DNA of 64,000 nucleotides from Eledone cirrhosa (Eukaryota). The DNA lies in NCBI GenBank assembly GCA_964016885.1, contig OZ024742.1, positions 75,950,001 through 76,014,000 on the forward strand, written 5' to 3'. The notes beneath the pieces are model-generated. The model did not search any database, was not told the origin of the DNA, and was given only the letters and a program-made list of their open reading frames with translations. Shown here piece by piece: positions 14,160-16,485 of this stretch (position 1 is its first letter; each line of letters opens with the position of its first letter). The position numbers and the translations under genes are program-made.

Positions 14160-16485
14160 ATTAATTGAAACAAAATGAAAACGAAATTTCATTTCTCACT
14201 CTTAGTATGGCACTTACTTAAATGTAAGTATGCATGTATACGTACATACATATATGTATACAGACGTACAGTAGCACGCACATATATATATATATATATA
14301 CATATATATATACATATGCATACAGGTACACATACATATATGCACGTATCAGTTTAGCGGCGCTAACGTCGCTTTGTTCGTTTGTAAACAAACTGAACAG
14401 CCTGAATTTATGCCATACGGTGTTAAGGCAACCACGTCACCTTTTTGTTCAACACTGACACAGGAACGATGTACTAGTTTCAAGCTTGTTAGCTATCATC
14501 AGCACCGTTTACCCATCTGCCAGATAGTTGAACGTTCGAAAGTATATACTTTCCTTATGAAAATTAACGGCTGAGCAGCCTAATTTGCATATTGAGTGAG
14601 TTAAATCGGTCAGGCATACCGAAAACGATAAATTGAAATAAAATGAAAACGAAATTTCATTTCTCACTCTTAGTATGGCACTTACTTAAATGTAAGTATG
14701 CATGTATACGTACATACATATATGTATACAGACGTACAGTAGCACGCACATATATATATATATATATACATATATATATACATATGCATACAGGTACACA
14801 TACATATATGCACGTATCAGTTTAGCGGCGCTAACGTCGCTTTGTTCGTTTGTAAACAAACTGAACAGCCTGAATTTATGCCATGCGGTGTTAAGGCAAC
14901 CACGTCACCTTTTGTTCAACACTGACACAGGAACGATGTACTAGTTTCAAGCTTGTTAGCTATCATCAGCACCGTTTACCCATCTGCCAGATAGTTGAAC
15001 GTTCGAAAGTATATACTTTTCTTATGAAAATTAACGGCTGAGCAGCCTAATTTGCATATTGAGTGAGTTAAATCGGTCAGGCATACCGAAAACGATAAAT
15101 TGAAACAAAATGAAAACGAAATTTCATTTCTCACTCTTAGTATGGCACTTACTTAAATGTAAGTATGCATGTATACGTACATACATATATGTATACAGAC
15201 GTAGAGTAGCACGCACATATATATATATATATACATATATATATACATATGCATACAGGTACACATACATATATGCACGTATCAGTTTAGCGGCGCTAAC
15301 GTCGCTTTGTTCGTTTGTAAACAAACTGAACAGCCTGAATTTATGCCATACGGTGTTAAGGCAACCACGTCACCTTTTTGTTCAACACTGACACAGGAAC
15401 GATGTACTAGTTTCAAGCTTGTTAGCTATCATCAGCACCGTTTACCCATCTGCCAGATAGTTGAACGTTCGAAAGTATATACTTTCCTTATGAAAATTAA
15501 CGGCTGAGCAGCCTAATTTGCATATTGAGTGAGTTAAATCGGTCAGGCATACCGAAAACGATAAATTGAAACAAAATGAAAACGAAATTTCATTTCTCAC
15601 TCTTAGTATGGCACTTACTTAAATGTAAGTATGCATGTATACGTACATACATATATGTATACAGACGTACAGTAGCACGCACATATATATATATATATAT
15701 ACATATATATATACATATGCATACAGGTACACATACATATATGCACGTATCAGTTTAGCGGCGCTAACGTCGCTTTGTTCGTTTGTAAACAAACTGAACA
15801 GCCTGAATTTATGCCATACGGTGTTAAGGCAACCACGTCACCTTTTTGTTCAACACTGACACAGGAACGATGTACTAGTTTCAAGCTTGTTAGCTATCAT
15901 CAGCACCGTTTACCCATCTGCAAGATAGTTGAACGTTCGAAAGTATATACTTTCCTTATGAAAATTAACGGCTGAGCAGCCTAATTTGCATATTGAGTGA
16001 GTTAAATCGGTCAGGCATACCGAAAACGATAAATTGAAACAAAATGAAAACGAAATTTCATTTCTCACTCTTAGTATGGCACTTACTTAAATGTAAGTAT
16101 GCATGTATACGTACATACATATATGTATACAGACGTAGAGTAGCACGCACATATATATATATATATACATATATATATACATATGCATACAGGTACACAT
16201 ACATATATGCACGTATCAGTTTAGCGGCGCTAACGTCGCTTTGTTCGTTTGTAAACAAACTGAACAGCCTGAATTTATGCCATACGGTGTTAAGGCAACC
16301 ACGTCACCTTTTTGTTCAACACTGACACAGGAACGATGTACTAGTTTCAAGCTTGTTAGCTATCATCAGCACCGTTTACCCATCTGCCAGATAGTTGAAC
16401 GTTCGAAAGTATATACTTTCCTTATGAAAATTAACGGCTGAGCAGCCTAATTTGCATATTGAGTGAGTTAAATCGGTCAGGCATA
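14160..16485 (-). repeat. Five-copy tandem array of about 467-bp units, one hammerhead per unit (retrozyme-like / tandem pLTR)
   Basis: Near-identical units. Hammerhead starts at 14465, 14932, 15398, 15866 and 16332 (spacing 467, 466, 468, 466). Confidence 0.95.
14465..14509 (-). ncRNA. Minimal type I hammerhead ribozyme (first of five copies)
   Basis: Reverse strand reads AACGGTG-CTGATGA-TAGCT-AACA-AGCTT-GAAA-CTAG-TA-CATCGTT. Canonical core with palindromic CTAG. Confidence 0.88.

Follow-up and report, generated by a model that had tools for sequence, protein, structure and literature searches.

A tandem array beside a TA tract

The window, i.e. the whole stretch of 64,000 nucleotides of Eledone cirrhosa DNA that was analysed, belongs to an assembly of 3.0 Gb. 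It harbours a tandem array at positions 14159-16486, with a period of 468, 5.0 copies and 98% matches. The units start at 14163, 14631, 15098, 15564 and 16032 and measure 468, 467, 466, 468 and 455 bp, respectively. The initial annotation had described five near-identical non-coding units. The period, the identity of the units to unit 3 taken as the reference (98.5-100%) and the absence of coding capacity (the longest stop-free frame inside the array has 100 aa, and no ORF of 120 aa lies wholly within it) agree with that description, but only four units are full, the fifth being a partial one of 455 bp. The array is a mosaic, with two changes common to units 3 and 5 and four confined to unit 2.

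We interpret the array (14160-16486, minus strand) as a single-arm retrozyme insertion composed of four full units and 455 bp of a fifth. Its RNA sense would be the minus strand and its cDNA sense the plus strand. The arm begins directly after a (TA)115 tract at 13929-14158, the presumed target, at the first of two start sites used throughout the family, and it terminates at unit position 457. With unit position 1 at 14163 and position 57 at 14219, a 56-nt 'tail' (14160-14218, plus strand) separates the two start sites. It is followed by an AU/GU-rich segment (unit positions 57-200; 14219-14362, minus strand) for which two long RNA helices are predicted. Non-LTR retrozymes are marked by target-site duplications that, where present, exceed 4 bp. 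None was seen at the ends of the window array, where the flanking (TA)n hides duplications.

Each unit also contains an octamer, ATGCAAAT (14583-14590 in the first unit), and an octamer-like site (14556-14566), which together make up a candidate promoter element on the minus strand (14556-14590). Both sites are conserved in a sister family, family B. The octamer is located ~90 nt upstream of the ribozyme core and is invariant in six aligned units of family A, that of the array, and family B. The promoter of newt satellite 2 includes an octamer. By analogy with that repeat, for which an internal promoter of the snRNA type is reported (PMC2220036), the octamer region is a candidate internal promoter element.

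A hammerhead ribozyme in every unit

Type I hammerheads are found on the minus strand at 14465-14509, 14932-14976, 15398-15442, 15866-15910 and 16332-16376, one per unit and identical in sequence in all five. The cut is predicted between 14472 and 14471 in unit 1, and the coordinates predict cut-to-cut monomers of 467, 466, 468 and 466 nt. The ribozyme consists of a 7-bp stem I, the core CUGAUGA/GAAA, a stem II with an AACA loop, a GUA site and a stem III of 2 bp within the palindrome ACUAGU. The latter corresponds to the palindromic CTAG loop noted in the initial annotation and is present in all units. The core is intact, and stem II is closed by U10.1·U11.1, not by G-C. An Rfam scan of the window (E<=1) yielded 142 matches, mostly microRNA models on TA/CA tracts and all under the gathering score, and no hammerhead. 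Thus, an intact minus-strand hammerhead is present in each unit as first described, but the term 'canonical' does not hold, given the U·U pair of stem II and the lack of an Rfam match. Elsewhere in the window, a near-perfect 82-nt inverted repeat (40009-40090) gave a weak match to a microRNA model, below the gathering score.

Eight hand-picked hammerhead variants of this genome were compared. Pairs that change on both sides amount to 8/14, and 92% of the cells are paired vs 28-49% in slid controls, which, since the variants are related, shows a conserved fold and does not provide a probability. The core is kept across the eight variants apart from the free position 7, and stems I and II covary across families. 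An identical 45-mer covering the hammerhead is found in 455/486 young units, in a sample partly selected on that motif; for the same reason, the fact that the hammerhead has fewer mutations (0.15% vs 0.26%) was not counted as evidence.

The activity of the ribozyme might be modest. In the predicted fold of the monomer, stem I of the hammerhead does not form. The axolotl hammerhead HHR_Amex2, whose stem II has the same U·U base, is reported to reach 22% cleavage within one hour when monomeric and to perform much better when dimeric (PMC7229834), and 8/9 predicted Xenopus dimers gave no cleavage product in vitro according to 10.64898/2026.07.22.740005.

Other hammerheads were observed. The window contains another type I hammerhead at 17443-17496 (plus strand), unrelated to the first and longer in stem II; it lies just before a (TA)34 tract and is likely the end of another Penelope-like element (PLE) family. 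At two other loci (L213 and L214), PLE endonuclease fragments have a further small hammerhead upstream of them, again with U·U at the base of stem II. Across this genome, such a U·U base turns up in three families that are unrelated to each other.

A large dispersed family and its relatives

Exact copies of the 44-nt ribozyme number 9,976 in the genome (control, 0), the first 100 occurrences being spread over 49 loci, and the exact young head-to-tail junction occurs 4,839 times. A looser core geometry, which also captures sister family B, gives 23,560 occurrences. The ribozyme and junction counts dispose of a one-off local duplication, one of the outcomes that the initial annotation had considered fatal to its proposal. 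The other, an assembly artefact, is unlikely in view of 2,917 contigs of public run X1 that match the unit; as this run possibly comes from the same sample, these contigs count only against a pure artefact. Three other public runs, X5, X6 and X4, have 4, 17 and 0 contigs on the unit, respectively, numbers with no bearing on expression or host range. With a hammerhead in 5/5 units, no coding capacity and a dispersed multicopy family, the reading as a non-LTR retrozyme is upheld.

Two diverged relatives had been noted near 2550-2810 and 4630-4830, and both exist, but only the second contains a ribozyme. The first (2552-2817, minus strand) is an older truncated copy with 77% identity that covers unit positions 4-284, begins near site 1 after (TA)n and stops short of the ribozyme, so that it has no hammerhead. 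The second (4670-4832, minus strand; 80% identity) is also older and carries a variant hammerhead at 4753-4797, in which stem II has C·A at its base and the site is GUU. A third fragment of the family, with 81% identity to unit positions 69-177, lies at 3916-4026.

Sister family B (L242-L243, G000:C1:5738094-5752746, and L245-L250) has units of 466-469 bp and a stem II closed by G-C, and includes a 31-unit arm with block duplications. Family C (L034:5805-7500 and L157:746-940) has 310-bp units with a U·U stem II and a hammerhead with different stems, including an ACGCGU stem III. Its location is inside the TA tract, beside family A arms. Lastly, one arm (L083:1939-4350) contains both older-type and young-type units, through either a template switch or a nested insertion.

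Insertions with two start sites and paired arms

The anatomy of the insertions was parsed in 179 stretches, most of them from contig C1. In the plus sense of the window, arms begin at unit position ~1 or 57, which are 308 and 252 nt downstream of the ribozyme cut, respectively. In the first 120 stretches and the window, TA-rich DNA precedes 162/199 canonical starts (84/104 site-1 arms and 78/95 site-57 arms) vs 8/23 other starts. The parsed arms consist of repeat units only, with no RT or GIY-YIG ORF between them.

We found 119 convergent two-arm pairs in the 179 stretches and set aside 23 with one start that was non-canonical or at the edge of the stretch. Of the 96 pairs with canonical starts, 95 combine site 1 with site 57, and one combines two sites 57. 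This pairing of different sites amounts to 72/73 without the 32 stretches of biased choice (20/21 in the sample chosen by the ribozyme, 42/42 in that chosen by site 57 and 10/10 in that chosen by site 1) and to 23/23 in the mixed set of biased choice. The initial annotation had suggested a search for arrays with permuted start points at other loci; the pairs lead us to reject freely permuted starts in favour of two fixed ones. Family B behaves similarly, with starts at 9 and ~78, 69 nt apart, in 6/7 two-arm elements. The inner junctions of the arms overlap by 1-8 nt in 43/83 cases.

The reported footprint of PLEs comprises an inverted arm, a tail at one end and a (TA)n target (PMC8557442; PMC3846280), and the one-sided tail, inverted arm and (TA)n target of the family match it. 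Furthermore, a purified PLE protein was reported to cut and extend both strands of AT-rich DNA, with two internal start sites on the RNA (PMC11167929).

Paired arms might also arise by classical twin priming, in a single pass on one concatemer, the second arm then starting where the first stops. One arm does end beside the start site of the other in 15/95 pairs, and variants are common to both arms. Nevertheless, the remaining 80/95 pairs lack this arrangement, where one arm ends bears no relation to where the other does, and the arm lengths are uncorrelated (rho 0.05, 67 pairs). We thus mostly reject this mechanism, which we regard as very improbable.

Penelope-like fragments in the neighbourhood

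A 5'-truncated, frameshifted fragment encoding a Penelope-like RT and a GIY-YIG domain is found in the window at 12909-13920 (minus strand). It ends at the TA tract of the array and has close copies at another locus (L150), and its Atlas neighbours are PF26215 clusters. Three other fragments, at 44424-44903 (plus strand), 42240-42839 (minus strand) and 6213-6599 (plus strand), we take to be PLE endonuclease-like, their clade label being our assumption. Pfam gave no name for any PLE fragment of the window. A plus-strand segment on the right of the array was considered as an inverted arm of the left-hand PLE and rejected. The window also contains a Helitron remnant at 52094-54469 (plus strand), with matches to Helitron_like_N (below the cut-off) and PIF1.

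The fragment at 44424-44903 has 56,234 candidate matches in the genome. At 30 loci of this one endonuclease family, we detected no autonomous PLE that shares the terminal repeat, only nested old copies.

This neighbourhood bears on a reading without any RNA, in which satellite-like DNA or the debris of a Penelope end was amplified by unequal crossing-over, or the array is an artefact of assembly. Only the TA tract separates the array from the truncated RT fragment, long arrays show signs of reshuffling at the DNA level, and local amplification from a PLE terminus is favoured in 10.64898/2026.07.22.740005. Nevertheless, the neighbouring PLE pieces have no DNA similarity to the unit, the units come without flanking DNA, the loci are dispersed, with fixed starts and paired inverted arms, and the changes fixed in arrays are strand-asymmetric (see below). 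The presence of the family in run X1 argues against an artefact. Taken together, the ribozyme count, the junction count and the pairing of starts largely refute this explanation, to which we give hardly any credence.

The template of the arms

Arms stop at a rate of ~1 per kb along the unit, and their ends fall anywhere, those near position 468 being partly a detection artefact of the alignment filter. Only 4/286 ends lie within 6 nt of the ribozyme cut (unit position 309), for 7.9 expected. A linear RNA cut by the ribozyme would halt the enzyme at position 309, and the lack of a pile-up there rules out a linear cleaved template and indicates that the template is circular or uncleaved.

The second option deserves attention. 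The same element and PLE enzyme could be at work, the template being linear, uncleaved RNA that reads through a source array and the hammerhead being nearly silent; whole-array variants would then stem from homogeneous sources or from later DNA-level expansion. In vitro, the main template of the purified PLE protein is reported to be uncleaved RNA, and ribozyme mutants to insert normally (PMC11167929). Arms run through the cut site, and block-duplicated and mosaic arrays exist. On the other hand, the covariation of stems I and II across families and the uniformity of the arrays are at odds with this scenario.

The 568 units of 123 young loci diverge by 0.18% inside a locus vs 0.73% between loci. 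When a variant is fixed in one arm, most units of the other arm have it too (48/48 cases). Terminal partial units carry the variants unique to their locus in 19/19 cases, which speaks against the linear transcript. Among arrays of >=4 units, 23/56 have <=1 internal substitution, and there are arrays of up to 13 units with none, a further point against it. With variants shared in this manner and such internal uniformity, arrays appear to be born long and uniform. Mosaic or periodic unit patterns are found in the window array, the 31-unit family B array and four other loci (L079, L084, L086 and L087). A single monomer cannot account for every array, and multimers, template switches or later DNA exchange act too.

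A proposed record of editing

We compared the variants fixed in whole arrays with those private to single units, in cDNA sense, in which T>C corresponds to A>G on the ribozyme (RNA) strand. The 38 distinct fixed variants include 19 T>C and 7 A>G, and the 233 private events include 26 T>C and 37 A>G (p=0.010 for the ratios), a skew towards A>G on the RNA that rests on few distinct sites, with most of the sampled loci from contig C1. As 7/19 fixed T>C sites are inside a microsatellite (117-165), where slippage can mimic substitution, we also considered the positions outside it, with ratios of 12:4 for fixed and 17:34 for private variants (p=0.004). With ten more loci, chosen for the T115C change, the number of T>C sites stayed the same and that of A>G rose by one (19:8, p=0.02).

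The segment at unit positions 57-200, predicted to fold into two long helices (z -7.5), contains 17/26 shared T>C sites, compared with 45/140 T positions (p=0.0001). Its shared variants comprise 17 T>C vs 4 A>G (p=0.0014). In this hairpin region, T>C changes affect the whole array in 16 cases (~10 if the T141C lineage is counted as one), part of it in 6 and a single unit in 8, and other changes affect the whole array in 5 cases and a single unit in 38 (10:8 vs 5:38, p=0.0007). Independent editing of multimers should give T>C changes in single units, and their predominance in whole arrays is thus a further argument against an uncleaved linear template, which we deem unlikely. Two loci accumulate such hairpin-type changes, with six in L084 and three in L078.

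T115C is present in all five units of the window (14277 in unit 1). It has 98 exact copies genome-wide, which mostly fill entire arrays and frequently occupy both arms. As all four combinations of two further markers carry it, it likely arose repeatedly. T141C together with C449T marks a lineage of 6 loci; some fixed variants are therefore inherited from the source, as the linear-template reading would have it. A 5' A is rare among the shared sites (1/26), a feature that matches the neighbour preferences of ADAR only partially. The pairing probability of the candidate edited sites is 0.70 vs 0.62, a gap too small to count.

Mutation of DNA should affect both strands alike, and RT errors should be private to units. 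A strand-skewed class of array-wide changes thus points to an RNA monomer that was altered once and then copied many times. A-to-I editing would be the simplest source of array-wide A>G, with unit positions 115, 141 and 147 as candidate sites. Editing is mentioned merely as a possible cause of circle heterogeneity in the available text of PMC7229834. Our literature search found no report on ADAR editing of retrozymes, but the supplements of PMC7229834 and of the preprint may cover similar insertions. For hammerhead tandem repeats in octopus, PMC8557442 was the only match.

Proposed life cycle

The array probably represents a young non-coding retrozyme insertion that was transcribed, cut, circularised and copied into TA repeats by a PLE-like enzyme lapping the circle. 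The two components of this reading can be graded separately. That the family is mobilised through RNA by a PLE is very likely, and the circular monomer is a likely main template. The Penelope link and the idea of rolling copies, both put forward in the initial annotation, gain genomic support from the paired starts, the arm ends and the uniform arrays. On balance, we also lean towards a more specific version in which the family is a fossil record of rolling-circle retrotransposition, with a PLE dimer, two set sites, one A-to-I-edited circle and up to 15 laps.

In the proposed mechanism, an internal octamer-type promoter would drive transcription. Weak cleavage, aided by two hammerheads pairing through ACUAGU, would release monomers of ~467 nt, which would be ligated into circles. 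A-to-I editing of the long hairpin would precede copying. A PLE protein supplied in trans would then cut and extend both DNA strands, and the two cDNAs would be joined through short overlaps. Some arrays, that of the window included, may have undergone later DNA-level reshuffling or been copied from multimers.

If this model is correct, single editing events become whole-array alleles in the genome, and the family provides direct evidence for the hypothesised life cycle of retrozymes and explains the one-sided tail of PLEs. For the spread of animal retrozymes, it supplies countable marks of both the circular template and the PLE helper. Since the two arms almost strictly begin at different sites, the way in which the PLE protein handles the two strands is constrained, a point that the in vitro study (PMC11167929) did not settle. 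The comparison of fixed and private variants can be carried over to other retrozyme families, provided that a long-read assembly exists.

Comparison with known systems

Judged by sequence, the array and its family bear the marks of animal non-LTR retrozymes, which form a known class. The family contributes genomic evidence, gathered across its copies, on its mechanism. Like the reported metazoan non-LTR retrozymes, the family is made up of tandem units that are non-coding and carry a single type I hammerhead, and it has a low GC content, thousands of copies and PLEs in the same genome (PMC7229834; 10.64898/2026.07.22.740005). Its unit of 466-468 nt exceeds the 150-450 bp range given in the former source and falls within the 51-972 bp of the latter. 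Circles are reported in those papers, whereas in this family the circle is proposed from indirect genomic evidence. Conversely, fixed starts, inverted arms and an editing record characterize this family and are not described for metazoan retrozymes in the available text of the two sources. The circular template and the PLE helper are treated there, as in PMC7761336, as likely but hypothetical.

The family also resembles endonuclease-bearing PLEs, for which insertions both in tandem and inverted, a one-sided tail, targets that are AT-rich or (TA)n, a pair of internal RT starts downstream of the hammerhead and the extension of both strands are reported (PMC11167929; PMC8557442; PMC3846280). Unlike PLEs, it has no ORF, and its tail is longer, with 56 nt (69 in family B) vs 30-40. 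In addition, it is rare for its two arms to begin at the same site, whereas the in vitro work is reported to show no difference between strands (PMC11167929).

Lastly, newt satellite 2 is reported to have an internal promoter, where the family described here has a conserved octamer with a putative promoter role. The two are alike in being tandem repeats with a hammerhead whose weak stem III is palindromic (PMC7229834; PMC2220036).
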